Assembly (NCBI GenBank): GCA_021432655.1
Contig: MU271225.1
Span: 62,001 to 100,013, forward strand
Length of the DNA stretch: 38,013 nucleotides
Reading direction: 5' to 3'
Source: Atractiella rhizophila
Taxonomy: Eukaryota
Shown here: piece by piece, positions 4,601 to 38,013 of the stretch
Layout: each line of letters starts with the position of its first letter
Position numbering within the stretch: position 1 is the stretch's first letter
Made by a program: the position numbers and the translations under genes
Notes under the pieces: generated by a model
What the model saw: only the letters and a program-made list of their open reading frames with translations
Database searches by the model: none
What the model was told of the DNA's origin: nothing

Positions 4601-4629
4601 GGAAGGCATCATGGCCAAACCAACACTGC

Positions 4630-5540: not shown

Positions 5541-6188
5541 TGTAGACAAAGGCCAATCCAAGATAGAGCGAGGTCCAATAGGGGGTCCATCTTAACCTTA
5601 AATAAGAAGACAATGGCGATTGAAAAACTGGGCAAGATATAAGGAAATTGGGGCAAAGTAGGACCTAGGAAAGGATGTAGAAGATCAGAGGATGAGGAAG
5701 GAAAGGAGGTTGAGCAAGGTGAAGCGTTGGAGGAAGAGGAAAGCTATAAAAAGAGAAAGTCTAGAGGGAAATATCCTTCCTCACTCGTGCTATAAGCATC
5801 CTATCCTACACCTTCATTTGACTTCTTACTTATTTCTCTCATCCTCAGGTGCTTGCTTTGGGTACTTTGGGCCAATTATAGTGTTGAAAAACACATTTTT
5901 TACATTGCAAAACTCCTGTTTACTATCCTAGATTCCCTTGAATTTGACTCCCTACCCAGATTCCTATTTAGAGAAGTCACCTTAGTCCTTCTTCACTAAA
6001 CTGCTTAGGTGTTTGCCCACCAAATGTTTATTCCCAATTTTTGAACTCTCCCTCTAGTCCAGGATAAGCGACTTCAGTGACTTATCCAACAAGTTTCATT
6101 CCCTGGAATAACTTACTTCCTTTAGTCAGTCTCGTAATGTTGACTTAGGGTCGGTGCTCAAGTGGCATAAATCTTGGCCAAAATAACA
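5541..6188 (+). repeat. possible LTR-like remnant
   Basis: TG...CA candidate ends, a purine-rich first half, TATAAAA near 5745 and a pyrimidine-rich second half. No TSD was found and the boundaries are uncertain. Confidence 0.3.
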
Positions 6189-6701
6189 TCACTCGAACGC
6201 CATCCAACAGCATCAAACCAGCGCTACTTGAGCTTATTAATGATGTTGGATAGTGGTAAAGCGGTGTTAGGATAGTGTTTCCTATTTCATTCAATGGTCT
6301 TTGGATGGGGTATTTATGGTATTCTCATTTCGTTCCACTTTCGTCCCTTTAGTGTTCTCTAGGTTGGAGTTTACTTCAGGGAGGGTTTGCATTTGGGTTA
6401 AATAGTATTATTATTTTGAAAGTAATCATATTACTGCATAATCTATATCTTGCTGCCTCCGCATTCCTCTTCCTCCACTTGTCATTAGTAATGACAACCC
6501 CAAGCTCTCCTCCAAGTTCTACTCCTTCCAAACCTCCCCCTCACCTCCATAGAAACTTCGCAAAGTCAAATAGACAAAGCATTTTGAGGGTTCCTATCAA
6601 TGGCTTGAAGTTCCTTCTCGCTGGGTCAAAGATGGATAAAGGCATAGCAAACCCACATAAGGCATAGGAGAGGCTGAACGGCATCAAGAACGAGCACGTC
6701 C

Positions 6702-7009
6702 TGTCAGGTTTTTATCTTATGCAAATTGGCGCCGGTTTGCATTCTACGAAAATTGGTGCCTATGTCTCCACTTAGCCCAATTGTGTCTATTCTCCTCTTA
6801 TTAACCTTACGTAATCCCACTGTTGCTTTCCCTTTTTGGTTCTCTGACATGTTTCGTCTGCTCTCCTCTACACTTTGTGGCAGTGTTATTCCGCTTGTAT
6901 ATAGATTGGAGAGTAGTGGGGGTGACCTTAGAGTATCCCTCAGGTTTTCTCCACTACAGGTTAGTCTCCTCATGTCATATCATTCTCACACATAGTGTCA
7001 GCCCTAACA
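6702..7009 (+). mobile_element. LTR, family A subtype 1 (308 bp, shorter 3' part)
   Basis: Ends TGTCAGG...GCCCTAACA and is collinear with 4251-4600. It has one rather than two copies of the 'aggttt..ctccactacag' motif. Flanks CGTCC / TTTGC do not form a TSD. Confidence 0.85.
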
Positions 7010-7379
7010 TTTGCGTCAAGAGGCAGTCGACGGAAGGGGTGGGAGAGTGAAGAGAGGAGGCGGGAGGGGAAGTCCACCAGCGAGTCTGGGCCGCTAATTG
7101 TTCCTCTTTTCAGGAGTTCCATGCCATGCAGGTGAAGGCAAAAGCGAGCGACCAGTCAAGCGCTGGAGCGCTGGGGATGAGGGAAAATGGCGACCTAAGA
7201 GCCAAACAAACCGTTAGCTCTACTCACTGAAAAGAGAGAAGAGAAAACACGATAGAAAGCAGGGGAAACCACATACCTTACGTGGCCCAAGCAGAGGTAG
7301 ATCAGTTGTGAGCATGTAAGTGGGAAGGCAACACTTAAAGGTCATAACTCATCGATAAGAAGCCTTGATGGGGCAAATC

Positions 7380-7868
7380 TGTTAGGGCAAACACTATGTG
7401 CGGTCGCCGATGGGCGATGCGTCTGTAGTGGAGGTAAACCTAAGAGGATAGTATGGCATGAGAAGACTAACCTGTAGTGGAGGTAAACCTAAGAGAATAC
7501 TCTGAGGTCACCACCACTACATCTCAATGTATATATACATATGTAAAGGCACTGCATAAACTGTAACATACGTTTCTTGAAACATATAAGATAGCTAGAT
7601 CAGGAAAGCAATAAAGGGAATACTCAGAAATAAGACATACTGAGCAGTACAAGTGAGAAAGGATAATAAGGCAATAATGGAGACGGTGCAGACTGGCGAA
7701 ATGTATAAGGTTTGCTGAGCGGCGATTCATGTGAGATGGGGGAAGGCGGCGGTCAGGGCGAACGTGAGCAAAGCGGCGACGGGTAGGCACGTGATCCTAT
7801 GACGTACTAAAGTAGGTCACGTGACATCAAATGGTGCATTTCGGTAATGCGTAGGGGCAAGCCTAACA
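7380..7868 (-). mobile_element. LTR, family A subtype 2 (489 bp)
   Basis: Near-identical reverse complement of 8063-8550; both encode the spurious ORF MPTRRRFAHVRPD... Confidence 0.9.
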
Positions 7869-8012
7869 GATTCGTGTGAGAAAGGTAAAGTGGCGGACAG
7901 CGTGGGCATGAGTAAAGCGGCGATGGGTAGGCACATGATCCTATGATGTGGTAAAGTGGGTCACGTGACTTCGGATGGTGCATTTCGGTAATGCGTAGGG
8001 GCAAGCCTGATA
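7869..8012 (-). repeat. diverged partial copy (5' ~144 bp) of the subtype-2 LTR
   Basis: Tandem, more diverged repeat of ~7724-7868, ending GTAGGGGCAAGCCTGATA. Confidence 0.85.
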
Positions 8013-8062
8013 CTTAGTGAGTTAGATGTGTTCTGATCCCTTTTGCTTTCAAACTGTGATTT

Positions 8063-8550
8063 TGTCAGGCTTGCCCCTACGCATTACCGAAATGCACCAT
8101 TTGATGTCACGTGACCTACTTTAGTACGTCATAGGATCACGTGCCTACCCGTCGCCGCTTTGCTCACGTTCGCCCTGACCGCCGCCTTCCCCCATCTCAC
8201 ATGAATCGCCGCTCAGCAAACCTTATACATTTCGCCAGTCTGCACCGTCTCCATTTTCGCCTTATTATCCTTTCGCACAAGTACTGCTCAGTATGTCTTA
8301 TTTCCGAGTATTCCCTTTATTGCTTTCCTGATCTAGCTATCTTACATGTGTCAAGAAACATACATTACAGTTTATGGCAGTGCCTTTACATATGTATATA
8401 TACATTGAGATCTAGTGGTGTGACCTTAGAGTATTCTCTTAGGTTTACCTCCACTACAGGTTAGTCTTCTCATGCCATACTATCTCTTAGGTTTGCCTCC
8501 ACTACAGACGCATCGCCCATCGGCGACCGCACATAGTGTTTGCCCTAATA
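8063..8550 (+). mobile_element. LTR, family A subtype 2 (488 bp)
   Basis: Ends TGTCAGGCTTG...GCCCTAATA and forms a ~490-bp inverted repeat with 7380-7868. Confidence 0.9.
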
Positions 8551-8778
8551 CTAAGGAGCAGCCACGTGCCTGCAGGCAGCAGGATGAGCCAGAAGGAGAT
8601 CAGTTGTGAGGAGGTAAGAGGGAGAGAAACACTTATGAGTCACGACACGTCGACTCATTCTGATAAGCACTGCGACGGGGCAAATCGCGTGGTTGAAAGA
8701 GGCAACAAAAGGGATCAGAACATGTCTAACTGGCTAAGGAGCAGCCACATACATCTGCAGGCAGCAGGACAAGCCAGT
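8551..8778. repeat. degenerate ~183-bp tandem repeat (target of the LTR insertions)
   Basis: CTAAGGAGCAGCCAC...CTGCAGGCAGCAGGA occurs at 8551 and 8734. Further pieces of the unit lie at ~7299-7379 and, inverted, at 8013-8062. Confidence 0.75.
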
Positions 8779-9246: not shown

Positions 9247-10083
9247 AGAATCCTGGACTAATGCCTAGTATTGCATAATAATCATTTCTTACATATCACA
9301 TTGTGGGGCACCCAGGTACAATGGTTTCGCTTGGATCTGTTCTTATTTTCTGGTTGCGTTTTCAGGAAGGCATTCAGGTTATGAAGTTCCATCACAGTTG
9401 TTGTTCCAATGGGTGGAAAGCAAGAGAAAGGGGGGGCGCGTGAAACGTTGCCTACATCCGAGCAACAACAATACTCACCTTGCACCAGTTTGGGAATTCA
9501 CCTTCAACCATCTGCCAACTTGTATCTGATACTACCGTCAGTGTATCATCCAATCCATCTTCTGGGTGTCCATCAGTCCCAACGTGTCGACGTTGGGCGA
9601 GCGACGCGACACGTACACGAGAGCGTCCTTCTGTTGCTGAGTGGCGAAAGCAGAACTTGAATGCGGTGAGTTGGATTGACGTCTGAGGATCTCTGCCTAG
9701 CCTGCTAGTCGCTTTTGATACTATACTGGATACTATATCATGGCTGGGTCGTTGCGTCGCTCGTGCGAATACTGCAGCGAATAATGCTGTGGAAACGTCA
9801 ACTGACGGAGCGCATCACTCGCTCATAACACGCAACATGTCCTTATAACGCTCATGATCGTAGAACTCGACAAACTCGCGCTGCTTACCAAATTACTAAT
9901 TAGCTACTACATACACGCTTCCATCGCCAATATTTATCAGAATATTCATCACAGGCGAGCCTTTTCTTCTTCTTGTCGATCGCTCCAATCGCTTCTACAG
10001 AGCGGGTTCTGCCAGTGAATAAGAAATGATGTGCGAGTGCATTAACCAAGGATGGATGAACAGGATCGCCAGACCATCTCAAT

Positions 10084-11399
10084 ATGATCCGTCGCAACGT
10101 CCTCGACTGTCCACCCGAAGTGCTTTCGCTCATCATTGAGCATCTCCTTCCTGCCCGGTTCAATCCCCCCATGACGGGCTTCGACGACGGGGACTCAGAG
10201 ACTCCAAACCTCCAGCGGCTCTCGCTCGTCTGCAAAGCGTTGCGCGAGCTATGCCTGCCATACCTCTTCGACACAGCCTACTTTCAAGCGACCGATCATC
10301 GAAATACGACCTATTCCGACCCTACAAGACCTCACAAGGAGCATGTGTCCATCCTCAGGATCAAGATAGGCGATCATTATACCCACGAGCACTTTCTAAG
10401 GATCGCTAGCATGCTGAAGGACTACATCAGAGATCATAATTGGAGGGAATGCAGCAAGCTTCATACTCTTCAGGTCGCCCTGTTTCCCAACATGACAGAG
10501 AACGACGTCGTCCAGAACGCAATGGAGAGCATCGGTCCAATCATCGAGGAGAATCTGCAACATGTAACGACGGTCATCGTGCGTCTCCACCTCCTCCGTA
10601 AAATCATCTTTTCATTTGGGGCATTGGATGGGAACAGCTCGAAACCAACATGATGCCCTGGTCTTTCCACTTCGCCTTCTCTCTAATCCAAGCCTGTCGG
10701 ACGCGTCTACGCCGCTTAGAATGGATAGACGAGAGCCAAGCCTTCACCGAATACGTCAAGGGCATCTCCAGCCGGCTCTCCGACCTCATCCTGCTATCCG
10801 AAGTCACCTTCAGCCATCTATCCGGGGAATCCCTAACCGAAGTCATTCAGTACGTCGATCTTCCCTCCCCCGTTCTCCAAACCGCTCGACTGACCCTTCC
10901 CTCCCTCCTCCGGCACTTGGGGATCAGTTGGCCACCTTCGGTCCGTCGTTTTCGGCTCCTCGAATCGACCTATTTCGTCCGGAGGGGAATATCGATAGAC
11001 GTCCAATGGATATACAACGCGCTGGACTCCATTTCTCACAATCTACGAGACCTCGAAATAGAGGGGTACCACATCCTAATGCCCCCTGTTCAGGCTTTGG
11101 CTTATCGGTTCGCCCTGCCGAGGTTGAGACGGTTGGTCTTTACGAACGTGGTGCTCCCTTTTAAGGTACTCAGGATGTGGGAGAACAATCCGGTCGAATG
11201 GCTGGAACTCGTTGGCATCACGATGGTCGATTCGGATGGGGAGGAGGATGAGGAGCGCCAGATTTGGCATTGGCAGTCCGGTTATGATCGCCTGAGGGTG
11301 CTATGTGGCGATAGAACGTGGGGTATAAGCCTTGAGTCTCTATTGAAGATCAAGTTGAAGGGGATCACCTTCATGGTCGAGGGAGAAAGAGTGATATGA
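10084..11399 (+). CDS. F-box-like domain protein with LRR/RNI-like C-terminal region
   Basis: N-terminal LDCPPEVLSLIIEHL...LQRLSLVCKALRELCLPYLF motif. ORFs 10084-10653 and 10650-11399 are joined in frame by a GT-AG intron at 10579-10637. Repeated LxxLxL motifs (LHTLQV, LRRLEW, LRDLEI, LRRLVF). Confidence 0.8.
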
Positions 11400-18850: not shown

Positions 18851-20106
18851 TCAACCAGCAGTCATTTCTGCAATCTTCTCTTCAGCCCAATGCAGACCCC
18901 GTTCCAATTCGTTGCGCGCTTTGTCCTTCTTCACGATTTGCACCTCCCAACCCTCCTCTCCTTCCTTCGGCCAATCGCTCTCGTACAACCACCACGGATG
19001 GATTCCTTCCGTAACATGGTATACGTTACCAATGAGCACTTCTTTTTCATCCAAGAATGCTGGCTTCCCAATGCGACATAGGAACCTTTCTCGTATCCTA
19101 GACTCTTGTACTGAATATGGCTGAACCGATGCTGGAATCGAGGCGTGTTCAAAGGGATTTGGAAAGGAAGCAGACATGAAGGAGAAAGACAAACAAAAAT
19201 CTTCGGCACGTGATGCTGCCGAAGAAAATTCGAAGTCAAGTAGAGCGGTGATACGATGCGGTTGTGTAGGAGTAACCAGAATATTTCTTCGCTCTAACGT
19301 TACGATATTACTCCAATACACCGGGTCTCTGGAGAAACTTACCGAGATCTCCATGACAAAAGAACGCTTCTTCATCTTCACAACCCTGGAGAAGCACTTC
19401 AATGCCTTCTTCAAAACGTCGAAGCGGCTCTTCCAAATCCGACCAGTCGCTGAGAAACTTGTTTTCACGTAGGTTCTTGATATGGAAGCGGGCCTTCTCC
19501 CGATAAAAGGCGGACACGGAGGGCAGAGGTCCTGCGTAAGGCTCCAGCACCGTTTTCCCAACCGCGACAGTCCCATCCGGCTGCGTTCGAAGTCCTCCAA
19601 AGCCCTTGAACCTGATAGAGCGCATTTGGGCCACATATTTTCCAATTTCGTCAACGATGCCCAATTTGTCTTCTTCTCCCAACTCATTCCATACCTCTTC
19701 CAGAGTTACGCCGCTCATGTGCTCCATAATCATCCAATCCAATTGGCTAGGGACGATATCAGAAACTTGATGAGAATGTGACACAAATGAAGCGTAAACT
19801 GTCGGCACTGGGATGGTGGTGCGCTGTCGGATGACGCTCAAAGCGGCGATCTCATTTTCGGACTTCTGGGGGAATATCTTGGAGGGGCTTAATCGCAGCA
19901 CGTAGGAGGTTGTAGGAGTCCAGACTATGTAACAGCGATTATTGTACGATATGGGAATCTCCGAGATCGAAGTAACCTGGATTGTTGTGCATCAAATAGG
20001 ATGAATGCTCCATTTCAGAACATACCGCAACTCCCAAAACTGCATCAAATAATCTCTTTATTGCGGCATCATCTAGTCTAACGTGCTTTTTGGGTCCTTC
20101 TCCCAT
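18851..20106 (-). CDS. aminoglycoside-phosphotransferase/choline-kinase-like (APH family) kinase
   Basis: SYNNRCYIV, ENEIAALSVIRQRTTIPVPTVY, WMIMEHMSG, HGDL/ERRNILV (across an intron at ~19295-19343) and ITALLDFEFS. A first intron at ~19979-20027 joins the exon starting at ATG 20106. Confidence 0.85.
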
Positions 20107-20826: not shown

Positions 20827-22368
20827 CTACGAATGCCCTGCTGGCATTCGATCGTAGTTGTTCTGAGGAAATAAGGAGGAATGTCGTTGAAGGAACTCGC
20901 TTTCGCCTTCGTCATAGTAAGTGTGGGCTGGGATATCGCTTCGAAATGCTTGAAAATGTCCGTATTGCGGCGCAGAACCGGCGTAACCAGAATCGTGCTC
21001 GTAAAGGTGGTCGTTATTATCCATATTCGCATCGAAAGGAGGGCTGTTGTTTTGCTGATAATGCCGCTCTCCTGGTGAAGAATTCGGCGAATACATTCCA
21101 GTTTGACGAGGAGGTGAATACATCCCAGCTTGTCGGGGAGGCGAATACATCCCTGGTTGACGAGGAGGTGAATACATCCCAGCTTGTCGGGGAGGCGAAT
21201 ACATCCCTGGTTGACGAGGAGGCGAATACCGGTGAGGCTGGTTAGGTGATGAATAGATTCCAGTCTGGCGAGGTGGCGAGGTTTCAAGAGGATCTGATGG
21301 GGAAAAGAATCCATTGTCCCGTCCATACGGGCTTTGGCTGTTTTGGCTGATATTGGCAGATGGAGGCGTTCCTCGCGTCCCCGAATGAGGAGACGTCGAC
21401 GCCAGAGTGTTCCTTCTTTGCCCTGAACTTTGGAAAGCGGGACGTGGAGGTGTGTATGGAGTGTGATAAGGAGGTTGCACCCGCATCCAAGGAGTACGTG
21501 GTACGTCGAAGGTGGGAGAGGGGAAGTAGTTGGGGGAAGTCATATGATTTGGACGGTTTGGGTTGCCGGGAGCGTTGGACGGAGAAGGTCGCATGGGGAT
21601 GGGGATGGCACGTTCATTTCCAACACCGTCTGTCTGAGCTTCCTTCTCCCTCTGCTCTGCCTTGAAGTCATACCACACCTTTTGAAGTTTTAGGATGTCC
21701 TGGAGCAGTCGTTTAAGTTCCCGCAATTCTGGCATTTCGAAAGTGGTGTATTCCTCATCGGTGAGGTGATGATCGGAGATGAATTTTCGAAGCTCCTCGT
21801 GACTTGGTGGTGCATTGTTCAACCCTTTCGGAATACGAGATTCCAAGCCTTCGACTAAATAAGGCCTGCTGGGGCGTTCCTGAAGAATCTTTCAAGTTGG
21901 AAGAAGTCAGGCTGGCTAGATGGGAAAGAAGAGTCAACACACCTCGAGTGCTCTTTGCTCATATCGACCTCTGACGTTGAAGTCGCTCTCAGTGAACACA
22001 ACTTCCATTTGTTGGTGAAGCGATATTGCCTTGTCGACCTGAGGCCTGAGATGTCGAATTCTAGCGGCGATTTCGAGCACCACCTTAGAGGAGAGTGTTG
22101 GCCATTCCGACGATCTAACAGGTCGAATGTTGATGCCAGACTTGACCGTTGATCGATTTCTAAAGCAAGGAATCAGTCAACATTGATCGATAAGAGAGAT
22201 AGATTGTTCTTACAGCACAAACATAAGCCATTCCTTGACGGAGAGGCTGAGAAACGAGAAATGAGTAAACGAACGTAACAGGAACGAGCAGGACGAGGGC
22301 ACCTGGAAGTTAGGGAGTAACTGCTGAGTGTCTTTGAAGGCTTCTGAGGGCGATTTAGGGGAGGACAT
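20827..22368 (-). CDS. hypothetical Pro/Ser-rich protein with YSPPRQxGM repeats; spliced, 5' end uncertain
   Basis: 339-codon terminal ORF 20827-21846. An upstream open exon at ~21943-22159 (NRSTVKSG...QRALE) is bounded by AG/GT. Candidate ATG at 22368. Confidence 0.65.
21086..21280 (-). repeat. 27-bp coding tandem repeat (~7 units; core alternates as a 54-bp dimer)
   Basis: On the plus strand, gaatacatcccagcttgtcggggaggc alternates with gaatacatccctggttgacgaggaggt; encodes YSPPRQ(P/A/T)GM. Confidence 0.95.
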
Positions 22369-22799: not shown

Positions 22800-24800
22800 T
22801 CACCCAGGGTGCCCCTTCTTTCGACTTGAAAATTGTAGGCTGGATTGTACTCTCCGTCGGACCCAATTTACCTTCCCTCATGCTGATGATAAGACATCCT
22901 GCTGTTGCTGTTGCACGTTGCACGGACGTAAACTATTCGATGTACATTGCACATGATGCAGTTAGATTGTCTTTTTTTCGCATATGCGTAGTGGTTGCCA
23001 CCAGACGTTTGACACCACCCGAAATCAAAAGCATCTACGACGGAATCGAAATCAACAATATAGTAAAGGAACCGATGTTATCAGGTTTTGATGTCCGTTG
23101 CATCCTCAAAAAGCGTAAAGACAAGGTCAATCTGCAAAAGTAAGGGACCAGTGCCTGAATAGTTACGGCTTGTAAAATAGTTGTCAAATGCAAATGAATC
23201 CCGACTCGAGCAACCATCACTCTGGTTACTCGCGCAGTTTCTCACTCTGAAACAACACCTCAACAATAAGTGTACACGCAGTTACAGCTGATCTGAGCAG
23301 CCAACTGGTTCATCATGGTCACCTGACGTAAGATTGAAATTGCAATCCATTACGGAACAGTACAAAGCTGAGCTGTATATCAAACTACAACATGGCATGA
23401 CGAGCGCACTCAGAAGAGCAGCATAGATGCCAGACACTTCGACTGCCAAGTTACGTGGCAACACCTACGTGCACAACAAAAATATCGAAAATTTCACTTG
23501 TGCCATGCTCAACTCATGCACAAATTCCTTTAGGACAATTAGCATATTTAATTTCTGCAGCATTCCAACTCTCTGTGACTGTGAGAAGACTCACACTACA
23601 CGAAGCTAGACCAAAGGAACCCCCATATTTCCAGTACTTCCTCCTCACTACATTTTGCACCTTTCACAGACGTCTAAGGTCTGGGCGATGATCCTTCAGC
23701 CCCAGCAAGAAGAAATTCTTTCCTACAAAGCTTTTTAAAGCCACAAAACCGAGTCACAGGAACATGAGGGTCTGTCGTCGTTGGAGTCGTTGCTTCACCC
23801 ACGCACGACCAGCCGAAAGACGACGCGTACGGTGTTTTGACTGAAGCAGGACACCTTTTGTAACAGGAACTCTATATTTTCGCGACCAGACTCTCTGCCG
23901 TCCCACCACCTCTCAGCCTACACATCAGACAGCCCTGAAAACCCTTGCCCGTCATGGCAGAAACAGGAATGTTGCAGCAATGTTGGAAGTGGAGGACGCA
24001 GTTGTAATAAACCAATAGAAACTTAGGAGTGGAAGGACACACGAATGGACGGCGCTCAGGCTGGTGTGTGTACATTGCTTCACCAACCATATGAGAGTGA
24101 TGGGACGATGAAAACCTGCAAAGTTTTTCAGTCGCTTATGGTGCAGAGACATTGAAAGGAAGAAGGCCAGGAGGCATCATTTTGAATATTACAATTCTCG
24201 AACATCTCTTAACAAGCCGGGAGTCCTAGTTTCTTTGGACGTTTCAAGTTTAGGAAATGACGAGCGGGTAGTGGTTGGAGTGAGAAACCCATAATCGTGG
24301 GACCGAGACCGTGGAGTAGAACTCTCTTTGTCACAGCTCTTGTTGTCTTTAACCTAGCCGGAACAGGGCTCTTTTTGAGATCCTTGTCCAACCACTGCCA
24401 ACCGTGAAAATAATCGACGTCGACCAAGCACCATTGTCTGGGATTGACAATATTTGGGCAATGAACAAACCATAGTCCAACCATCCTTGAGAGACAATGC
24501 ATTAATCATCAGCCATACTGGCCATGTAAGCACGTCTTGGCAATGCGTTTACAGCTCGACAATGCTTGAGCAAAGATTGTTGCTACTTGACAACAGTTGA
24601 AAGATAATGTTAAAATGGTGAAGTGACAGCATGAAATCCGCATCAAGGTCTGACAATTTCTTAAATATTCAGCTCCCAGATGGCACTAGCACTTTCAGAT
24701 TTGGTTCAAATCGCTTGAATTTTCGTATACCACCTTTTACTACAGCCTGTCTCCCTCCCTGTCGCTCCTCCTGTTCCTCGCGTCCTCCTTCTGCCTCGCT
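22800..24800 (-). pseudogene. probable highly decayed CACTA/EnSpm-like transposase remnant
   Basis: Fragments DYFHGWQW, GEAMYTHQPERRPF, CCNIPVSAMTGKGFQGCLMC and YWKYGVP occur in the order expected for the DxxDGxxW / CDxPA..GCxxC / xGP motifs. Many stops; the assignment is tentative. Confidence 0.35.
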
Positions 24801-26697: not shown

Positions 26698-27367
26698 CCG
26701 ATTTAGTCATGCCTTCCTCAGTCTGGTCTGGCCAGACGCCATGTTCCCGCTGCATCTTATCTTCAGTGCCATCCATTTTGAATTCTACTAACCCTCCTCT
26801 GTTGTTGCAGTCACAGATATCCATCTCCCTGTATCAATACGATCATGCACCGTAATCTCTCACATATAATATCTCAACCTTCAAGTTCGTCTCTGCCTCT
26901 GATTATGTCTTCGCCGTTACTTCGCTTAACAGTGCAGTTGTGATGGGGGGATTAATTTGAATTCTCTCCCGTACATTCCTTGCTTTTGTGATCTAAGGTT
27001 ACAGTTAAATGCTATGGATTGGTTAAAATATTTGGATGTGACGTTGGCAGTTGAAACTCTGTCCATTTACACGCAGAAACTAAAGCTGGGTTTTTATCCT
27101 GCTAAATAATGTGAGAATCCGAAGGCACAGAGTTGCTTGACATAACAACTTGATTTGGACTTGAAAATATCGGCATGCTGGCTGAGAAGAAACTTGCTTG
27201 AAGAAAACGTAGAATCAAAGCAAACTGTCGACACATTGTAGTGCGTTTAGAAACAACTAAGACTGTTAATGAAAAACACAACGATAATGAAACTACAAAC
27301 GACATAATACAAACAATCAGCCTAAAGTGACAGTCTCCTTGCGATGTAAACTATGATGCGGCGCAAG

Positions 27368-29325
27368 CTATACATCGTCATTGTCCTCCCCTTCTTCCAT
27401 CATATCAACGAGGAAGTCATCAAAGTCTTTATCATCATGTTCGACATGTCTGAAACGTGCGGTTTTTCGCTTGTGGAAAGCTGGTGGCGGCAGCTGGAAA
27501 CCTGCTCTCTCGATCTCAACATCGCTGTCATTTAAAAAGGCTTGGACGAGGTTGGATGGTCGGACGTAGCCAATGTCCTATGATGGGATGAGACATTGGG
27601 TTCGACCGGGTAACAGGGACATACCATACTTCCCATTGCAACCATACAGGCTTCAATCCTGACACCCATCAAAGCCCTGTCCGCTAATAAGTTTCCGTTC
27701 CATTCCGCACTCCCCCTCTTTGCTTTTCCATCTGTCCAGCGCAGTTGATCGAGTTGAGTTCCTTCTCCGGCAATTTGGCCAAACGTTTTCATGATGAGCT
27801 CCTTTCCAGACAGAGAAAGACGATCGTCACCAGTCTTGAGTGATTTTCGGCTAGGCAGAATCGGTTTGAACGAACTCTTCTTGGACTTGAGAGTGGTAGT
27901 CTGCCCATCTTTCTTCTTCGCCTTGTCAATGAGGTTAGTCCTATCCTAGCGCCGTCAGTATTACCATCTCTTTTCAGTCCAAATGTGACCTCACAGTTCC
28001 GATTGGTAGCCTTGACCAGTTGGACTGAGAATCCAACCTGTAGAAAGCAGGTAGAGTCGGCAGGCATTAAGAAAGATGTTCTGGTATTCATTTCTTCGAC
28101 AACCAATCTGGGAGCGAACATTTTCCTATGTAAAGCTGAGCAATCTTCAAGCTGAACAACCTGGAACGTACGTAGAAAGATCCCCTCTCTGGGAATCCCA
28201 GAGCAACGTGACCTTGACCCTTCCCGATCTGCTGCAAGATAATGAGAGTTTGATCGACTCTGCCAACTTCATAAACAAATGTCCTTAGAAACATTGCCTT
28301 ATTGAATGTTAGAATTTGTTCATTATAGTATTGTTCCTGTTCAAGCTGTTAGCAGGACGATTAACAATTAAGTAACCTACAGGCAGATAGACCTTTCCCT
28401 CTGTAAACTCCATCGTAGCTCTCCCACTTTCGTCCGCCCAGAATCCATCAAAAGCAAAAACCTTCTTCTTTGCCGCCTTCTTCAGCACCTGAGCAGGCGC
28501 TCCCTCATTAGACTCTGCTCGCTGAGTTCGCCTGTTGGGCATTTTTCTGGTTGAGTTGGTCTTCTTTCGCTTTTTCGTCGGCATCTCCTCCTCCTCCTCC
28601 TCCTCCTCCTCGTTCTCCTCCTCCTCCTCATCCTCATTCTCGTCCTTCTCCTCTGCTTCTGAATTCCCCTCCTCATCACGATCCCGTTGCATTCTTCCAT
28701 GCTTCTTTGTAGACAAAGGCGCTTCGTTCCATTCGCCTCCTCTAGCTCTTGTAGTGCTGGCATGAGCTGATGGTCTTTGAGCACCACCAAGGTTGAGAGC
28801 AGCCTTTGGCCGGAGCCTCTGGAGTCTTTCGGGCCCCATGTGCATCTGGGGAACTTCTTTTGCTAGGAGAGACTGTGAGTTGCCGTCGTCCTCTTCGAAA
28901 GATAGAGAGCGTATGCGTAGCTGACCCGTCTGGTACTCCGTGATTTGTTTGGTGTAGTGACTTTTGATTGACTGGTTGTAGACAGCAAACAGATTATTCA
29001 ACTCGTTCTCTGCTTTGATGGCAGAAATTTCATGCGTTCCAAACATACTAACAATGCTCTGAGCCTGGAAGTGAAATCATCTTTCAAACCCTGTCTTCCA
29101 ACAGTAAAACGAGCTCACTGTTATAGTCTGTACTCGCATAACAAACTGTCTGATTTTGTCCTCATATTCAGGTCCAAGATCGCGATAGAGGTCTTCAATA
29201 TCAATAATGACATCCATCACGGTGCAATCCTCCCCAGCGCCATCCTTCTCGAATTTCTTTACCACCTTTTCTGCAGCCTTTTCAACCTCTCGAGGACTTA
29301 GGGTGTGATCCTTCCTTTTGGGCAT
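27368..29325 (-). CDS. hypothetical spliced nuclear protein (acidic tract, KKRKK-type NLS), divergent from the transposase
   Basis: Starts MPKRKD at 29325. Exon ORFs 29077-29325, 28309-29046 and 28088-28294. The 3' exons splice in frame (…AMGSM/DIGYVRPS…EDNDDV*, TAG 27368-27370). Middle junctions were not all resolved. Confidence 0.7.
28585..28640. repeat. (TCC)n/(GAG)n microsatellite encoding poly-Glu
   Basis: ctcctcctcctcc... run within the minus-strand gene. Confidence 0.9.
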
Positions 29326-29734
29326 CTTCTAAGTATATAAAAGAATAAGAGACGCGTCAGGTGGATGGTTGTTGACGTTGACAGGCATGTCATGTTGTGG
29401 AATCAACAAGTTGACACGATCGATCGAGGAACAGTCAGTGAAATTGGATGAGAGAGAAGCTGAGATGATACGCTCAGAAAGGTCAGACATAGGAAGGAGC
29501 ATACATGGCAAGTGCTTAGTTACAAGTTCTGCAAGAAAAAGGTCATATGAGCCAGTGGCACAGATCGTGCTTCCCGTATTCGCAACATCGGCAGGATGGC
29601 GGCTCGCCTGTCGAAATCAGTCAAACGCGTCCCTAATCTGCCTCGCTTTGGTGAGTTTTTCCATCACCCATCCTATCGTATCTTTAAAGGTTGAGTTAGT
29701 AAAGAATCGTGACACTAACACACCACTTGCTCAA

Positions 29735-32700
29735 ATGCCTCCGTCACAGGACACAACAATGCACAGTGCTCTTGCTCTCGAAATTCCATCAGGCTATTCA
29801 CAAATGTCATTCGACTCCATTCCAGCGTTGATATCTAGTGATCAGCACTGTGTGGTTGCTGAAGAGGCAATTGGCACCACATCCAGACTGTCTGCTACTT
29901 TCCAACCAGTTGCGCAATTACCTATCGACGAATCAATCTTCCTTGGATCCTTCCCAGCTAATTTACAACAAGGCCCGACGTCACAACAAGAGTTACAAGA
30001 TCCTCTTTTCACACCTCTAATTTCAGATGCCAGTTTGTCAACGGAGTCATTGGCAAGCTTCCTTCAAGTGCCGAATCCAAGCCCACCTGCAAGCTCTTGC
30101 GACTCAAGATTCTCTCAATCTAAAGATGATGATCCTCATCCTAGTCAGCATCGCCCTTCTCCTTCCGATGGTGCTCCAGGAAGAGGACCTTCCCGTCCGC
30201 TTGGGTGGATGTACCTTGAGGAATCCCGCGATATCTCAGGTGGTGATTCACCTCTGACCAGTCGAGAGATCACGCTATTCGGCATGCTGACATGGTGCAA
30301 GCTCAATCATATGTCAGAGCAAGGTTACCAACAGCTACGAGAGCTCCTCCTCCATGTCGATTTCGATGCGAAACTGCTTCCCCACTCTATCAAAACAATC
30401 AAGAAGCTGGAAACTTGTCTTCCGCTGATTCCAATCCATCTCACGAATGTGGAAGCAGAGTGCAAAAGCAGACAAACCGGCAGAGTATCGAGGTCTCAGG
30501 TCAAGGCACCTTCCTACCATTTGCCGTCTCTAGTTCAGCAGCGAGTTGTCGAGAACCCTGAGATTTTCTCGTCTTTGTGGACCGGATTAGGGACCCGACC
30601 TCATCAGCGCTCCGAGATGTGGCATGGAGACCTTTGGCATGAGTCGATTGCTATTGCACGACAGGATCTACCTTTTCTTGCACAAAACCAATCAGCTGTG
30701 TGGCCAGGATGCTATATAAGCTACTCTCGGCCACAAATCAAAAATCCTGATAGCAGTCATGTCATTTTCAATCCAAAAACAAAAGCCATTGGTCGTGTTG
30801 CTGGGATTTTTCGTGGAACTGGCGCTGATGGGAATGTGAGTAATGATATTCTGGCCAGAATCCAGCCCGTTGTATCCCTCGAAGACACTTTTAAAGCTCT
30901 GACTGTTCTCGTTCCATCCATCAATATCTCTAAGGTGAAGAAACTGTGGAAGAACTACCGAAACGAATCCATGGTTATCGAATCTAGCCGGCGTCAGCTC
31001 CTGATCTTGGACTTTGACCATATCGTCAACCTAACCTCCATTGCCAGAAGACTCAAGGACTCCGAACTTTCGATTTGGAAAGAGGAACGCAAACTTACTC
31101 AAGACGACCTCTTGACTGGTGATAACCTCATCGTAGATACGGTCGTGCTGTTCGGAAAGCATAAGACACCAACTCCTGAAACCCTAGGGTTCTCTTCACT
31201 TTTTCGGCTCCCTCCAACACTGGCAGAACTTGAGATCGAGCGAGGAGTAATTTCTGAAGAACAGCTAACAAAAGGGTTTTCTGGTCCGCAGAAGACCTTT
31301 GTCATACCTATCTCTTTCTACTTCGATAAATTCGGTGTTTTCAGGACAACGCATCGAACCTGTGGAGGTCTTTATGCCATGATTGCAGGTTCCCCAGCTT
31401 TTCAGCGAGAGCAGCTCCGAAATCGAATAGTTTGTGGCTTCGTACCTTTTGGGACTCACCTTCGCGAGGCTGGAGCTGAATTTCTACGTGAGGTTGTCCA
31501 GTACTCTCGTATGCCATTCCAGCTGCAGCATTTTGATCGACAGACCAACAAGCCCATAATCAGCAACTTCTTTGTCATGTTTATCAGCCTGCGCGGCGAT
31601 CTACCTCAGATGAATGAGGATGCAGGTACTAAGCTGCCTGGCGCGATCCATCCATGTCGCAAAGATCTCTCTCTCCGCGAAGATGCCACTGACTTTACAC
31701 TCAAACCAACGACACTCTTTAACCTTCAAAGGTCGATCAAAGAGTCAAGAAGGGCCCAAGAGAATGCTGAAGCGGCAATGAATGCCACAGCTCGAAGTCG
31801 CATCATCCGAGACTTTGGATTATCCGATCTGGAATCTGCATGGACAAGTGCTGGGCTTGTCTGGGATCCATTTCACCAAACACCTTTCGATATTTCTCAC
31901 TCCGAAGGTGCAGGTATCTGCAAGGACCGACTGATCGATCTGAGTTTGCGTCTCGTACTCAGTCCTGCTGGTCTTGAATGTTTATCTGAAGTTTTGACCA
32001 AAGAACAATTTCCATCGCCGCCAGGGTACTCTTCTACCCCCAATCCTGTCGGGCACTCCAAGCGATTTCAACAGCGTGACGCTTTCAACATCGTGAGTTA
32101 CGGTGCACTAGCATTGGACTGCGCCTTGCGCTTTCGATTATGTGACCCTCGCCATACCTTTGGCATCAAGAAGGATGCATTCGAGAAGCTGAAGCTTGCT
32201 TACCCAGACGAAATAAAGAACCATGAGCACTGTTTGAATCTCTTGATTGAAACATGGAATGCCATCGCAGAGAGCAACTTCTGCGTGCTCGCACGGTCGA
32301 TGGATGACCATGCTTACTCTGTGCTTCATGACACTGTCCTAGCAGGTCGACACGCAATGCTGAAGGTGCGTAGGTATCAGGGACTGATCTACTAGGGTCT
32401 GAGAGTGTTTGCAGATGTTCCGCCCACTTACGGATGAGTTAGATAAACTGCCAAACATGCACCTCGCTCTGCACCTCGCTGACGATGCTCGTCTCTTTTC
32501 TAATTGCCTTAACTCTTCCGTCGCCTTAGACGAGATTCTGCACAAGGCACCGAAGACACTTGTGCCACACACCAATTTCAAGGATATCGATGTCGCCTTC
32601 CTCAAGGACGATAATCTTCTCCAAACAATGCGGAGTGTACTGGCTGGAGGGACAACGGAAGATTGTCCTCGCATATCTCGCATCTATACTGCTTTACAGC

Positions 32701-33451
32701 ACAGAACCCCAAAGTTGTTCGATGGGTACTACTTTGGCCATCACGTCGTGAATGTCGGTGCTTTGGATGATCATTCCGGGAAGGTTGGAAACCTTTCACT
32801 TGAGCAAGTCGATAACAGGTGAATAGGTCACTGCTGAGCATCCAGCAACTGATATTATTTAGATTTCTTGATATTCAGCTCTACTTAGAGCTCTCTCGAA
32901 AGGAAAGACGTTCAAGACAACTTATCCATTCATTGGTGAACTGCGAACAGCCATCTGTCAAAGAACGCATTCGACTCCTCCGTTGCGCCTACCAAGAATG
33001 GTACACCATCCCTAATCCGCTAATTGCAGCTGATAATATTTCTAACGAGTTGAGACACTTCGAAAAACTGATATATTTCGATACAATGCTCCAGCATAAA
33101 CGTACGATCCGAGTGGGGGATCTTGTTGGATGCAATACACAAGGGCATGAGGGCCAGCTTGTCATTCGAACAGCACGAGTGGATGAGATATTTATCCATG
33201 CACAAAGCAGCCAACATCGCATCTTTCTCAAACTCACATGGTTCAAGGACATAGGAAGTTTTTCTCCTCTCATGCCATCAGTCCGCAAGTATGAGTTGGA
33301 CAGGGCAGGTTTGATTTCTTCCATCGCAGGCATCGGCATTCTTTCAAGTTCTCGGGCAGCTCATTTTTTACCAAATTATAGGAAGCACAAATCCACCGAC
33401 TCTGCGATTTCAAGTTATCTGTACAATCCATTAACAGTGGCAGTGGCGTAG
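29735..33451 (+). CDS. CMC/CACTA-superfamily-like DDE transposase with C-terminal BAH-like domain (~1207 aa), apparently intact
   Basis: Motifs SEMWHGDLWHES, FYFDKFGVFRTTHRTCGGLY, GFVPFG, RGDLPQ..AG.K...A.HPCR, DPFHQTPFDISHSE, LPNMHLALHL and EILHK. C-terminal IRVGDLV...ARVDEIFIH...IFLKLTWF. Introns 32366-32414 and 32819-32862 join three ORFs in frame. The frame is open from 29369, so the ATG at 29735 is a best guess. Confidence 0.72.
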
Positions 33452-34481
33452 TTGCAATTGATATTGTTGGTCAAAACATTCATTTCTGAGCTAACATTCA
33501 GAATATCTTTCATAATACGAGTACAAAGCGTTGAGAGAAGCGGCGCAATTTGCAGTCCGTTTGTGACGTTTATGCGCTGTTGGCTTTTCCTGCCACCTTC
33601 CCCTTCGAACATACTTAGTTGTTTGTTTACTCTGAACAGCAAAGGAGAAGGCAAAGGAACACTCACGGGGTTCTTCTTCTTCCTTTTCGCAGGAGGATTC
33701 TCATCGTTAGTTGATGTTTCCGCTTCTTCAGACCTTGAGGCTTTTGCTTTAAGAGGGGCAAACTTCTTCAGATCCTCCATACTGGTACATACAGCCAGAA
33801 GGAATGAACTATAGTGATCCCCCATTCGATCTCGCCAAAAGCCCTATTGCTACCCTTAAACCTATCTCCCCATTCCAGCTATGAGCAAGAACACTCACCG
33901 GCATCAACGTCTCCAAATGCTCCACCGTGCTCATCGGTGACATTGCTCCCCTCCCCCCCTCCTCCCAGCTCCTCCTGAACATCTTCAATTCCTTCACTAG
34001 CATAGGAGGGTTTTGCAATAACTCCATCCCACCTTCACATATTTCCAGCGGAATCGCGCGCTCACAGGTTGGCTCCGTCTTCCCCCTTTTCCTTTTCGAT
34101 GACATTGGGATGGCTTTGGATGCGGAGGTGTGGAGCACAATAGAGGGTCGTCGTTGTTGTTTGACGTTGTGAGAACCGCGAGTCACGCTGACATTACCAA
34201 AGTGAGCGACTGCCAGCCTGAGCCTAGAGATGCAAACATACCAAACTCAAGCGCCTCCTCCGGTGGAAGCAGTGTTGCTTTACTTTCTCGTTGGTATCAT
34301 CCTGCTTCAGAGACCTAATCAGCCAGATAACGGGATCGCTGCGAGTGAGGTGGCTGGACTGCATAATCACGCACGAAATGACAGTACCCGCTCCCCACTC
34401 CCACACATCTAAGAGATAGCATACCTTGGTTCCAGCACGAAGAAGAAGGTCGCTAACAGGCGTCACGACCTCTGTGGCCAT
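33415..34481 (-). CDS. hypothetical, possibly degenerate spliced gene with PPAKRKKK NLS
   Basis: ORFs 34224-34481, 33809-34186 and 33415-33825 with GTATGC/GTATGT/GTGAGT donors. A clean full frame could not be reconstructed. Confidence 0.35.
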
Positions 34482-35813
34482 TCTCCATCTACTCTGACAT
34501 CTTTGCTAACCCTTAGTCTATCCTCATACTACCCACGCATCACAATTGCCCGATGATTGACCAAGCGTTGTCGACAGCCGAGCCAGATATCCCAGCATTT
34601 TCAAAGTTGCCAACGATGGGCCCTGCTTCTCATCAGAGTCAATACATAGTCGGCAATGAAATGAAAAGCACTAAACATCATTGCTATTGTGGTCCACAGC
34701 TTCGTGAGGAGTGATGGAACATGGCTAAGTGTCAGTGCGATGTGACGCTCATGGAGCGTTAATGGCCAATCTAAGCCGAATTGGCATTAATCTCGTTACG
34801 GTTGGAGGACAATAGGAAGGTTCCTCTCACCTCCTTGCCACATAAACTAGCAAGCATGGAGCAATCGTCAACAAGCGAAGACAACTGTTGTTGCAGTCGA
34901 CAATGATGGGACAATGATGCCACAACAATTTGACAATGTCGGGACGGTCGTGGTTGGTTGCTGGCCAAGTTTTGTTTGTTTCCGACGATTGAGCAATGCT
35001 CAAGACATAGCAGTGCAACCATACGATCACGGTTTGGACACAGTGGTATGCCTTTTCAATCACCTTCCAGCACCTACAAGCATTTCACTGACATTGGACA
35101 AGAATCTTGAAAAGGGACCCTATTCCGGCTAGGTACTCGTGAATTCCCACACAAAACCATAGCAAGTCGAGCTAGTTCACGAATTTGCCCTGAGGAAGAA
35201 GAGAGACATTGATTGAAGCCGCTTTCGTTCCGCCTCTGAGAGACTATGTGATGGGCTGGTGGACGCCAAAGGAGGGAAGAGGGAGTTGATCCCCTGGAAC
35301 TTTGCAGGGCGGGTTGAGTGCTGTGGAGGGGATGGAGTAGTGTATCTAGTGCCTGGGAAGTGCTGAACACTCGTGGTTCAATGACAACTGTAATGGTCGC
35401 GAGAAACACGAACTAGACAACATCAGCAGCAGAATTAAAGGACTTCGGGGAAACACAACCCTCAATTGCAGAGTTGAGTCAACCCTCTCCATCACCACTC
35501 TGCCTCCGCCATTCAAAAGGCATTGCTCCTGTGGAAGGACTTGAAGAAAGAAGGCCAATGGTGGAAGAATGGATTGGTGGGTGTGTTGTGTGTTGAAATA
35601 GAGAGAGCTGGAGAGGAAAGTGCACGGAGGTCAACTTATTGCAGTACCACAAAATCGTTAGACAGTATATATCTACTAAAATATCGAAATTTCATATTGT
35701 AACTAGCAAAATTAGAACCGCTAAATTGATCTACAAACATAGATAGCGCAACAATGTAATGGGAATAGGTGAAATGTACTAGAATAATACGAGCCCATAA
35801 ACGCTTGAGAGCC

Positions 35814-38013
35814 TTATATCGAGTCTGGAAGATACATTTCCTCATTCTGGTCTGCATCTCCTTCAACCAGAAAGTCGTCTGCATCCGGTTCGAGAGCTGT
35901 GTCAATGACTGTATCCGACTGGTGGCGAAAAAGAATCCACACGAATGCTGTACCGTTGCCGTCTTCAGCTTGAAAAATCCCGATCAAACGGTGGATCTGG
36001 TCCAGAGGTACAAGCTGATAAAGATTACGAGCGGTGGGGTGAGCGGGACTGCAAGGTGCGAGACCAATCAAAACTCTATTATTGTATGTTCTATATGAGA
36101 ATGAAATACATACCTGCAAGGTGCGAGACCAATCAAAACTCTGGGTCTCACACTTGCAGGGGAAGTTATTTTATAGCATAAAAGCTGAGTAATAAGAAAA
36201 AGGAACCAAGGAAATATGACTTCATACCAGCAAGAGAAAGGAGGATGCGTTTATGCTCCCGTGGCCCCATCACAAGCCGATACTCGTCGCTTCATTGGCA
36301 GAGGATCTCACTCTGTAAGGGGTTTGCTCGTTTGTTGAAAAGCTGAGTGAGCGCGAAGAGCCTGTCGGCTATTGCATCTGCTGTTGGGTTGAAGAAGGAC
36401 TCTGGAATTCGAATGTAGACAACAGCCTCACCATAGAAGACGTCTCCAGCATCATCAATGCCCTATCTGTCATGTCAGAGGAGTTTGTAGCTCATATAAG
36501 TGCACTAATCTAAATCTGACCTGAAATCTGCGAGCCCTTCTTGCTTCGAATTTCCATGACCGTTCGAGTCTCCGAGAGTGAATAACATCCCCATTAGCCA
36601 AAGAACACCGGCCCCAGTGCTCCCATTTTGCAACAGTCTTCTCCATATCTATTCCGTCAAGATTCTTGCCATGAGAGGCACAGTAGGATTGAATCAAATT
36701 GATCTCATGCATCCATTCTACGAATTAATCGCTGCCTCGCAGTTTGACTAACTTGGTGACAGGAATAGACGTCCATCGAGGTGAAGAGACAGAGTTGTGA
36801 GAGGATATAAGGACAACTGACAGAACCGAGGGGCAGACTTGCCATGAATGGGATTTTCATCTGGATAGAGAACATCAACGATGTTCAGCTGCTCTTGCAA
36901 AAGTGCTTGGTTAAGGAGATTCTCTTGATACTTGTTGTCCTGGTTGATACACTTTTTAAGATAACCGATCATTCCCTCCATAGGAAATTACGAGTAGAGA
37001 ATTCCTGGGCCCCACCAGAGAATCCAATCGGCAACGTGCAAGAGATGGTGGATGCACATGGGTATTCGAACAAGTCGAGACCGATCCCCTTGTACAAATA
37101 CCTTCTCCCAGCCTGTAACGAAATTGGCAAAATATTCTCGAATTTTGAGCCGCTGCTCTTCTGTAATCTGATGCTGCCATGCGAGCCGGCAGCCACAGAC
37201 AAAAGAATCAATTACGTTTAGGACATTGAGAGGAAATCCAAGGAGGAAAAGGCTAGGAAGAAGCAGCCAGTCGTAAATGTCCCACCATTCGTGCATCTTG
37301 TACTGAGTGTTTTGAAATCGGTATATGTTTCGAGGAGCCGCCTGAGAGAAGGCGTAGGGAATATCGATTTTGGAGCGTTCGATCATGTTCCCAAATTCCT
37401 CATGAATTTGCTGTGTCGGATGCCTTGGTTCAGGAAGTGACTCCTGCTTGTTGATCCCCATGGTAGAATCGAAAATGAGTTCAGCATCATTCTTCCAATG
37501 GAGATGAGCAAGATCCCCAGCAAAAAAGGTCCAAGGATCACGAAATGTAGCGAGACCAGATATGGGCGTGACGGAAATGACGCCACTGTCACGAGCTATC
37601 TCTGAACGAGCTTTTTGGGTCATCGCAGGGGCTAGGTCCTTTGCTATTTGTGTGTATTCTGTCGTTGTGCGAATGAGAAGGTTTAGAGGATCGTAGGCGA
37701 CTAGGCGATAATCAGGTAGTGTACCATCATCCTGAGGACGTGATATACATGGGTAATAGTAGTGTTGGCCAAGAAGCCGACCGATAAGCTTGCAAAAGCG
37801 ACAGCCACACTTGCCTTGATGGCCCGTGCAGCCGTTAGCCTTTGCAGAGCCAAGCATGTCACCTATGTGTCTTTCAATGTGAGTTTAAAGGAAGCAGTGT
37901 GAGTAAGATATTTCGATACCGTTTCAACTCACCTCCTAACACCTACACCCTACGACCTATAGCTTCCACCAAACAAACCTTTCCTACCGACTAGTTGTTC
38001 GAGCCATTCTTAG
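35814..38013 (-). pseudogene. Tnp2/Transposase_21-like (CACTA/EnSpm) transposase, 3' part, with nonsense codons
   Basis: GDMLGSAKANGCTGHQGKCGCRFC, GDLAHLHWKN, PRNIY...YKMHEW, IHHLLHVADWILWWGP and YS*FPMEGMIGYLK (in-frame TAA 36988-36990). Then WGRCSLANGDVIHS, FYGEA and LDQIHRLIGIF. A second stop (TGA) lies at 36292-36294. The gene runs off the window edge. Confidence 0.85.

Follow-up and report, generated by a model that had tools for sequence, protein, structure and literature searches.

A Plavaka-like transposase gene of Atractiella rhizophila with a RAG1/Transib-like core and two predicted BAH-fold domains

Introduction

A stretch of 38,013 nucleotides (nt) from the fungus Atractiella rhizophila (GenBank assembly GCA_021432655.1, contig MU271225.1, positions 62,001 to 100,013 of the forward strand; hereafter the window, with positions counted from its first letter) contains a very long transposase-like gene that lies head to head with a second spliced gene. 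The question raised by this locus is what kind of genetic unit it represents. From sequence alone, an initial annotation had proposed a two-gene (or larger) DNA transposon module, either active or domesticated, whose CMC-like transposase ends in a BAH-like tail. Here, we examined the gene model, the predicted fold, the relatives and the surroundings of the transposase. It is most likely, with a probability of roughly 0.72, that the large gene encodes an intact Plavaka-like DDE cut-and-paste transposase of the CMCT clade with a RAG1/Transib-type core and two BAH-fold domains, and that this copy is a low-copy and recently functional one.

The CMCT clade, as described in the available part of a recent comparative study (Kojima 2025; PMC12730594), groups Plavaka with EnSpm, Mirage, Chapaev, Transib, ESTA and Lanisha. 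The traits listed there for the clade are a D, D, E catalytic triad, a C(2)C and an H(3-4)H motif, mostly CA..TG termini and target-site duplications (TSDs) of 2-5 base pairs (bp).

Results and discussion

Structure of the transposase gene

Three stop-to-stop frames on the plus strand (29333-32395, 32403-32822 and 32816-33451) underlie the transposase gene. When its three exons are joined through two GT..AG introns, they give 3624 nt that encode 1207 amino acids (aa) and contain a single, terminal stop. The gene of about 1200 aa that had been expected to be intact after removal of two canonical introns is thus present, with the second intron being provisional. Its features are the following:

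29735..32365, plus strand: transposase exon 1, residues 1-877; open frame with a non-conserved N-terminus, a RAG1-like helical region, the internal BAH-like domain, the RNase H-like core with D531 and D622, and a helical insertion
30581..31246, plus strand: probable internal BAH-like beta-barrel domain, protein residues ~283-504 (model residues 134-355)
31325..31327, plus strand: codon of catalytic D531, motif FYFDKFGVFR
31598..31600, plus strand: codon of catalytic D622, motif LRGDLPQ; the C-x2-D variant of C(2)C follows at residues 641-644
32366..32414, plus strand: intron 1, 49 nt, GTGCGT..TGCAG, phase 0, placed by frame arithmetic
32415..32818, plus strand: transposase exon 2, residues 878-1011, with H893-x3-H897 and catalytic E917 (codon 32532-32534)
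32819..32862, plus strand: intron 2 (provisional), 44 nt, GTGAAT..TTTAG, with CTGAT 12 nt before the acceptor; the shortest option was chosen
32863..33451, plus strand: transposase exon 3, residues 1012-1207, with the predicted C-terminal BAH domain; stop TAG at 33449-33451

Two observations support intron 1: an annotated homologue (P0002) is joined at the same point, between AMLK and MFGPL, and a contig of run X3 breaks at 32380/32432. Intron 2 is required because the TGA at 32820-32822 has to be removed and the frame has to shift; the intron chosen is one of 47 possible in-frame GT..AG combinations, and the junction region is unconserved among homologues. The frame on the 3' side of this intron is strongly conserved in full-length homologues, including P0003 (1246 aa), which is collinear over query residues 168-1183 (E = 1.5e-55), and P0010, which is collinear over residues 515-1183. 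A C-terminal exon joined by splicing is thus the parsimonious interpretation. The choice of start codon is uncertain: besides the ATG at 29735, in-frame ATGs are found at 29387, 29465, 29759 and 29804, and the first ~165 residues are unconserved.

A small spliced gene on the minus strand (33415-34600) converges on the transposase gene. It encodes ~135 aa containing the motifs SSKRKRGK and AKRKKKNP, and its stop, as judged by translation, lies near 33570, at most ~120 nt from that of the transposase. Its three introns (33602-33665, 33843-33897 and 34188-34241) appear as CT..AC joints in contigs of X3 (depth 268) and X4, and not in those of DNA runs. Since these joints, GT..AG on the minus strand, are absent from DNA runs, X3 (whose kind was given as '?') and X4 ('RNA?', a guess) were read as RNA-like.

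Fold of the catalytic core

Residues 150-877 (window 30182-32365) were modelled with AlphaFold2 from an alignment of 135 sequences, giving a mean predicted local distance difference test (pLDDT) score of 83.1 and a predicted template modelling (pTM) score of 0.83. A Foldseek search of PDB with this model returned 44 matches at E ≤ 1e-3, and all such matches listed were RAG1 or the amphioxus RAG1-like protein. With VIA-align the best match was again RAG1 (Z 12.1; 384 residues aligned at a root mean square deviation of 5.2, model 31-728 against RAG1 463-922), with BbRAGL (Z 10.1) and HzTransib (Z 7.4) at lower ranks. The same order was obtained by an exhaustive, Foldseek-independent search of 48,161 chains (RAG1 11.6, BbRAGL 9.9, Transib 6.5), in which the P element transposase reached 5.7.

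In the predicted structure, the core is organised as in RAG1 and Transib, with a helical region at the N-terminus, then an RNase H-like domain and a helical insertion that bears zinc-motif residues; H893-x3-H897 and E917 follow in the protein. The assignment to CMC-like DDE transposases made in the initial annotation is therefore well founded, as an RNase H-like core with a helical insertion was recovered as a RAG1/Transib-like fold and relatives of the protein touch the Pfam family Plavaka (see below). The same annotation had named a missing RNase H/DDE fold as evidence to the contrary; the fold was found (RAG1 Z 11.6-12.1).

Catalytic and zinc motifs

To describe motif conservation, 150 relatives were aligned to the spliced window protein, and the counts below refer to the relatives aligned at each position. 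D531 (motif FDKF) is D in 127/127 relatives and D622 (GDLPQ) in 119/121, and E917 (EILHK) is kept in 19/21, next to H920 in 20 of 21. The two histidines of the HxxxH motif (NMHLALH), H893 and H897, are each present in all 22 relatives aligned, in agreement with an H(3-4)H motif before the catalytic E. H722 is conserved as well (106/106). All four motifs that had been pointed out from the sequence thus fall in conserved columns, and the catalytic D, D, E and H-x3-H are all intact in the window protein.

The C(2)C motif differs. Its first cysteine, C641, is kept in 118 of the 119 relatives aligned, and its second position, 644, is C in 100/110 and D in 8/110. The window protein belongs with the latter, having Asp at this position (C-x2-D). 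While the motifs and the C-terminal domain named in the initial annotation stood, this substitution and the internal BAH-like domain had been missed.

Relatives and family placement

The lineage is largely invisible to standard searches. No Pfam family was matched by the three transposase exons at E ≤ 0.1, a word-index protein search with residues 350-877, at near lengths, gave no match, and a subfamily profile searched against PDB sequences found neither RAG1 nor any transposase, its three matches (E 0.075-0.25) all being proteasome activator. An exhaustive HMMER search identified 291 relatives at E ≤ 1e-3, among them 93 at E ≤ 1e-10 and seven at E ≤ 1e-30. The nearest named proteins come from an Atractiella species; the close homologues P0001 and P0002 are 89% and 86% identical to the window protein, the latter over query residues 615-1010. 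It appears from neighbour clusters in the ESM Atlas that the lineage spans Basidiomycota and Mucoromycota, and the early characterization of it as a poorly described fungal lineage is a fair one.

A Pfam scan covered 115 of the 150 listed relatives (sets of 36 and 79, leaving the last 35 aside). Plavaka (PF18759) was weakly matched by 15 of these (6/36 and 9/79) at E ≤ 1e-3, and no other family was. Only three of the 115, P0024 (27.1 bits), P0046 (26.3) and P0061 (26.8), are at or above the gathering score of 26.3 bits. Because its own exons have no PF18759 match and so few relatives reach this score, we call the window protein Plavaka-like and not a member of Pfam Plavaka. A core-domain tree of 102 sequences (FastTree, midpoint-rooted, taken without inspection of branch supports) places it in a clade marked by DKFGVFRTTHR, apart from a large FGLYRNMYRS clade that holds most of the Plavaka-positive proteins. 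One ESM Atlas neighbour cluster carries Plavaka on 42% of its members. Low-depth contigs of run X3 are ~91% identical to the window over the transposase gene, and 19 stretches of metagenome contigs fit the pattern of a related locus, none of which was confirmed.

The window itself also contains, at 37492-37917 (minus strand) and within an open reading frame at 36988-37884, a degenerate piece of a different Plavaka-like transposase. It is matched in tblastn by P0014 (28% identity over 136 aa, E = 5e-5) and also by P0082 and P0133. The summed depth of this stretch in DNA runs is 4-6 times that of single-copy parts.

Two predicted BAH-fold domains

The C-terminal domain was modelled with AlphaFold2 (window 32864-33448, 195 aa, 14-sequence alignment; pLDDT 88.3, pTM 0.85). 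The first 32 Foldseek matches listed were all BAH-domain proteins, the best being ORC1 at 7.8e-4, and all 50 matches listed by VIA were BAH domains as well. In the exhaustive search, the top 15 of 48,161 chains were BAH domains. ORC1 was the best match (Z 10.2; 126-127 of 157 residues aligned), followed by TNRC18 (9.0), ZMET2 (9.0) and the first BAH domain of DNMT1 (8.9); the first non-BAH folds, i.e. Tudor, chromo and PWWP barrels, came after the BAH matches with Z of at most 5.5. A BAH-like tail had been suspected from the sequence, and the model confirms at the fold level that the C-terminal exon (residues ~1012-1207) is predicted to form a BAH domain.

A second BAH-like domain is probably present inside the protein, at protein residues ~283-504, where it separates the N-terminal helical region from the RNase H domain in the predicted structure. 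In VIA and the exhaustive search it matched the BAH domains of Rsc2 (Z 6.7), EBS (6.3-6.4), AIPP3 (6.2), ASH1L (5.7-6.3) and DNMT1 (5.7), as well as those of DIM2, ORC1, ASI1, MET1, TNRC18, PBRM1 and Sir3. More than 14 different BAH structures match model residues 134-355 with Z between 4.6 and 6.7, and we graded this domain as probable because these values are moderate. A profile-profile comparison of the two BAH regions by hhalign aligned the same core strands (E = 0.0012, probability 20%).

Both regions recur in the family. Iterated searches detected the C-terminal domain in 30 of the 150 relatives, always at the C-terminus (26 of the 45 relatives with at least 900 aa), and the internal region in 102 of 150. 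Since both are found across the family and in both major clades of the tree, they are an ancestral trait of the lineage and did not arise by a local fusion. The BAH domains are assigned by structure and not by sequence, as Pfam BAH (PF01426) gave no match on the window exons (E ≤ 0.1) or on 115 relatives (E ≤ 1e-3). An ESM Atlas neighbour cluster of 89 members, mostly from Mucoromycota, had been named automatically as 'putative BAH domain-containing protein', which is a lead and not a test.

In the literature searched, we did not find this double-BAH architecture described, and standard profiles miss it. The terms 'Plavaka' and 'BAH' never co-occurred in a search that did not cover the original description of Plavaka (Iyer et al. 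2014), and queries combining the BAH domain with transposase, transposon or targeting gave no BAH-bearing transposase by title or abstract. The part of the CMCT study that was available (PMC12730594) contains no mention of BAH domains.

The divergent orphan gene

Upstream of the transposase gene, a second gene is transcribed in the opposite direction:

27368..29325, minus strand: divergent orphan gene, 486 aa; exons 29325-29134, 29064-28381, 28336-28172, 27834-27625 and 27577-27368, derived from P0151 and canonical splice sites
29326..29734, no strand: intergenic region, 409 nt between the divergent start codons, a presumed bidirectional promoter

Its four canonical introns measure 69, 44, 337 and 47 nt (donors GTACAG, GTAGGT, GTACGT and GTATGT). 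The protein is acidic (92 D+E against 71 K+R; isoelectric point 5.15), and its second exon encodes a long Glu run together with PTKKRKKT, which includes a KKRKK motif. A spliced, acidic gene bearing a nuclear localization signal ~410 bp upstream, as annotated initially, is therefore borne out; its start ATG at 29325 lies 409 nt from the transposase ATG at 29735, a spacing that varies with the choice of start because the transposase start codon is not fixed.

The sole homologue in an index of 5.8 billion proteins is P0151, a hypothetical protein of 243 aa from A. rhizophila with 85% identity across 244 aligned columns. The gene model rests on this homologue and not on automatic searches for paths with short introns, which gave either no path or 55 arbitrary ones. 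In X3, a copy with ~95% identity is represented by a contig of 2074 nt, which breaks at 29063/4 (the acceptor of intron 1), 28171 and 27997/27940, and keeps two extra exons within the 337-nt intron 3 (28125-27995 and 27940-27835, minus strand). When read in the window copy, these exons run into an in-frame stop at 28090-28088, which suggests alternative isoforms or a truncated product of ~360 aa. Nothing beyond low-complexity noise was detected by Pfam on the exons, the ESM Atlas gave no confident fold for P0151 (pLDDT 0.28) and only unnamed basidiomycete clusters as neighbours, and phmmer found no match between the divergent protein and the 150 transposase-family proteins. This is a real spliced orphan gene that shares a presumed promoter region of ~0.4 kb with the transposase.

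Active transposase, two-gene unit, host gene or relic

Several observations weigh against an intact and recently functional transposase with two BAH-fold domains. First, ends of an element were not recovered. A generic scan for terminal inverted repeats (TIRs) with 14-mers gave 195 pairs, which is about the chance level by our own estimate (~100 independent pairs by arithmetic, more with overlapping shifts, no shuffle control having been used), and a scan for CA..TG termini flanked by TSDs of 2-5 bp gave one candidate, against a mean of 2.25 in 20 shuffles. Second, intron 2 is provisional and the start codon is not fixed, and two 151-nt X4 contigs (32808-32958 and 32968-33118) cross the intron 2 region unspliced; these could be pre-mRNA, the 3' untranslated region of the convergent gene, or DNA. 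Third, the internal BAH domain is assigned from Z values of 5-7, a range that may reflect a shared arrangement alone, and BAH function in the transposase is a fold-level prediction. Fourth, the Asp at position 644 could weaken the structural zinc site, and Asp can in principle bind zinc. Finally, the nearest homologue is annotated as two fragments that jointly lack residues 451-614, including D531, which implies that copies of this lineage decay, and the apparent copy number is low, as would also fit a host gene.

Published termini of PlavakaA/B, according to the portion of the CMCT study at hand (PMC12730594), are TGT..ACA with a 2-bp TSD or CATCA..TGATG with a TSD of 2-3 bp; no pair bounded in this way was found in the window scans, in which the published consensus sequences were not compared. 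Subterminal repeats were found neither near 27.0-27.4 kb nor near 33.4-34.5 kb. Ends of the element could not be delimited because only a single copy was at hand. The best inverted repeat of the window (24352-24395 and 35094-35134; ~41 nt, ~85% matched, arms 10.7 kb apart) was tried as the TIR of a 10.8-kb element and rejected, as it has no TSD and no CA/TG ends and its edges look like boundaries of other repeats. Its 17-mer core occurs twice (0.05 expected), and contigs of three runs end exactly at 24352 and 35133/35134.

Among the alternatives, the one that survives best is that the two head-to-head genes form one transposon module (or part of a larger one), in which the divergent protein would be an accessory factor encoded by the element, co-mobilised with the transposase and expressed from a shared bidirectional promoter. 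Second proteins of this kind include TNPA of En/Spm and the Myb-like protein of Harbinger. The genes are 409 nt apart, each has one close homologue set in the same Atractiella species at a similar divergence (85% against 86-89%), and the ~95% identical copy of the divergent gene is represented by the spliced 2074-nt X3 contig. In DNA runs of the source organism, summed contig depth also rises over both genes (X1 300-490 across 27212-34423, against 166-199 in three bins to the left), although summed depth (X1, X2) is not copy number and is a hint at most. On the other hand, P0151 lies on a contig of 43,738 nt and P0001 and P0002 on another of 309,835 nt, no TIR or TSD encloses the pair, no subterminal repeats flank it, and the divergent protein has no similarity to the transposase family, no Pfam family and no confident fold. 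Moreover, the orphan has one homologue and the transposase 291 relatives, and therefore the pairing cannot be a family-wide trait. The single-module proposal of the initial annotation thus fared poorly, and the alignment of copies suggested there to define TIRs and TSDs came down to scans of one copy that gave chance-level results. We consider a two-gene module unlikely.

It is rather unlikely, too, that the transposase has been domesticated, i.e. that it is now an immobile host chromatin-associated factor which has kept a RAG1-like core and BAH readers, with the divergent gene and the small downstream gene as ordinary neighbours. Such a factor would account for a long intact frame without recognisable ends, the low apparent copy number, the C-x2-D change in the zinc motif, and the tight packing between expressed, spliced genes, with the small minus-strand gene ending within ~120 nt of the transposase stop. 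A rough ratio of nonsynonymous to synonymous substitution rates (dN/dS) of ~0.3, derived from 14 amino acid differences to P0001 (residues 343-449, 107 codons) and 27 differences in 320 nt to an X3 contig (30761-31080), suggests purifying selection if this contig is a transcript of P0001, but the assumed identity of contig and protein is unverified. Domesticated copies of transposases often lose some of their catalytic residues, whereas here the catalytic D, D, E and H-x3-H are all kept. In addition, the closest homologue is split into two gene models without the D531 region, which resembles the decay of transposons, and the degenerate Plavaka-like fragment at 37492-37917 lies in a stretch of high summed depth, which implies that such elements proliferate in this genome.

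A young relic, meaning an immobile copy that looks intact because it is recent and whose ends have been lost or eroded, is equally improbable: no ends were found, the sister copy is already broken and the window is rich in decayed elements (Copia at 1-3715, a repeat cluster at 4.2-8.7 kb and the Plavaka-like fragment at 37.5-37.9 kb), but a 3.6-kb frame without stop or frameshift and with all catalytic positions would hardly persist for long without selection, and related copies are present in contigs of a run that behaves as RNA.

Other features of the window

A Copia-type retrotransposon in pieces occupies 1-3715 (plus strand), with gag-pre-integrase, retroviral SH3-like and RVT_2 domains in successive shifted frames. 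The region 4250-8750 is dense in direct and inverted repeats, such as a pair of 319-nt arms (7555-7873 and 8058-8376, 96% complementary) and recurring CTGTAGTGGAGGTAAACCTAAGAG units, and has the appearance of a non-autonomous element present in nested or foldback copies. A 27-nt tandem repeat of five units (21071-21259) is located within an extended open frame on the minus strand (20827-21891). In contigs of X1 and X3, 54 nt of it (21103-21156) are missing, which makes the repeat two units shorter and therefore polymorphic in length. An APH-family phosphotransferase is split over two frames at 18851-19991 (minus strand), probably by an intron, and an F-box-like frame is found at 10060-10653 (plus strand). 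The latter two are ordinary host genes and suggest a gene content of basidiomycete type.

A possible chromatin-guided transposase and its significance

In DDE transposases of the CMCT clade, DNA cleavage and rejoining take place at an RNase H-like site, and the Plavaka-like transposase would use the same chemistry. According to the titles of the matched structure entries, the BAH domains of ORC1, DNMT1, ZMET2, BAHCC1, EBS/SHL, TNRC18, Sir3 and Rsc2 bind methylated histone tails or nucleosome surfaces. By analogy, the two predicted BAH domains may dock the transposase on nucleosomes or methylated histone tails, and such docking may bias the insertion site or the timing of activity. They would then do in cis what the PHD finger of RAG2 does in trans for RAG1. 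In its strongest form, this model would hold that a whole RAG1-fold lineage carries two BAH readers in cis that steer insertion or activity according to the landscape of histone marks, for instance to H3K9me/H3K27me heterochromatin as a safe haven, and that the window copy is autonomous and still active. We put this forward as a tentative possibility that is somewhat doubtful at present.

If true, it would provide a built-in counterpart of the coupling between the RAG2 PHD finger and H3K4me3 in V(D)J recombination. To our knowledge, there is ample evidence that chromatin readers target retrotransposon integrases and, via RAG2, RAG, and hardly any for eukaryotic cut-and-paste transposases. An intact transposase of the RAG1/Transib fold with two family-wide predicted BAH-fold domains offers a concrete, testable case of chromatin-guided DNA transposition, and a point of comparison for how the RAG recombinase came to rely on a histone reader. 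Because neither Pfam nor word-based searches detect this lineage, its annotation in fungal genomes is probably incomplete, and transposon annotation would benefit from profiles derived from this family. Were the gene domesticated after all, it would represent a new transposase-derived chromatin factor.

Comparison with known systems

The window protein shares with Plavaka, as far as the latter is covered by the available text (PMC12730594), the character of a fungal DDE transposase that has a length of at least ~1000 aa and contains the D, D, E and H(3)H motifs, and its relatives reach PF18759 (15/115, three of them at or above the gathering score). It differs in having no Pfam match of its own, in belonging to a separate tree clade, in that the published termini were not found and in that no TET/JBP gene is present at the window transposase.

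En/Spm (CACTA) elements belong to the same superfamily-level clade and are the source of the idea of a transposase accompanied by a second protein. Unlike in these elements, no CACTA termini, 3-bp TSD or subterminal repeats were found at the window locus, and the divergent gene has no detectable relation to known accessory proteins.

Chromodomain integrases of chromoviruses (Ty3/gypsy) are a parallel in that an enzyme of a mobile element is fused to a reader of histone marks, but both the enzyme class and the reader fold are different from those of the window transposase. The chromodomain of MAGGY directs insertion to H3K9me regions, as cited in a preprint (bioRxiv 10.1101/2021.11.30.470311), whose accessible part names chromo and PHD, and not BAH, together with transposable-element domains.

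The closest structural resemblance is to RAG1, ProtoRAG and Transib, in which the best matches extend from the helical region through the RNase H domain into the insertion (RAG1 ~460-922, ~390 residues aligned). Sequence identity to RAG1 is only 10-12%, the sequence profile does not find RAG1 in PDB, and the window protein has no equivalent of the nonamer-binding domain. The RAG recombinase also makes use of a histone reader, namely the PHD finger of RAG2. In contrast to that arrangement, in which the reader is supplied by a partner, no RAG2-like partner was seen for the window transposase, and its predicted BAH domains are built into the enzyme itself.

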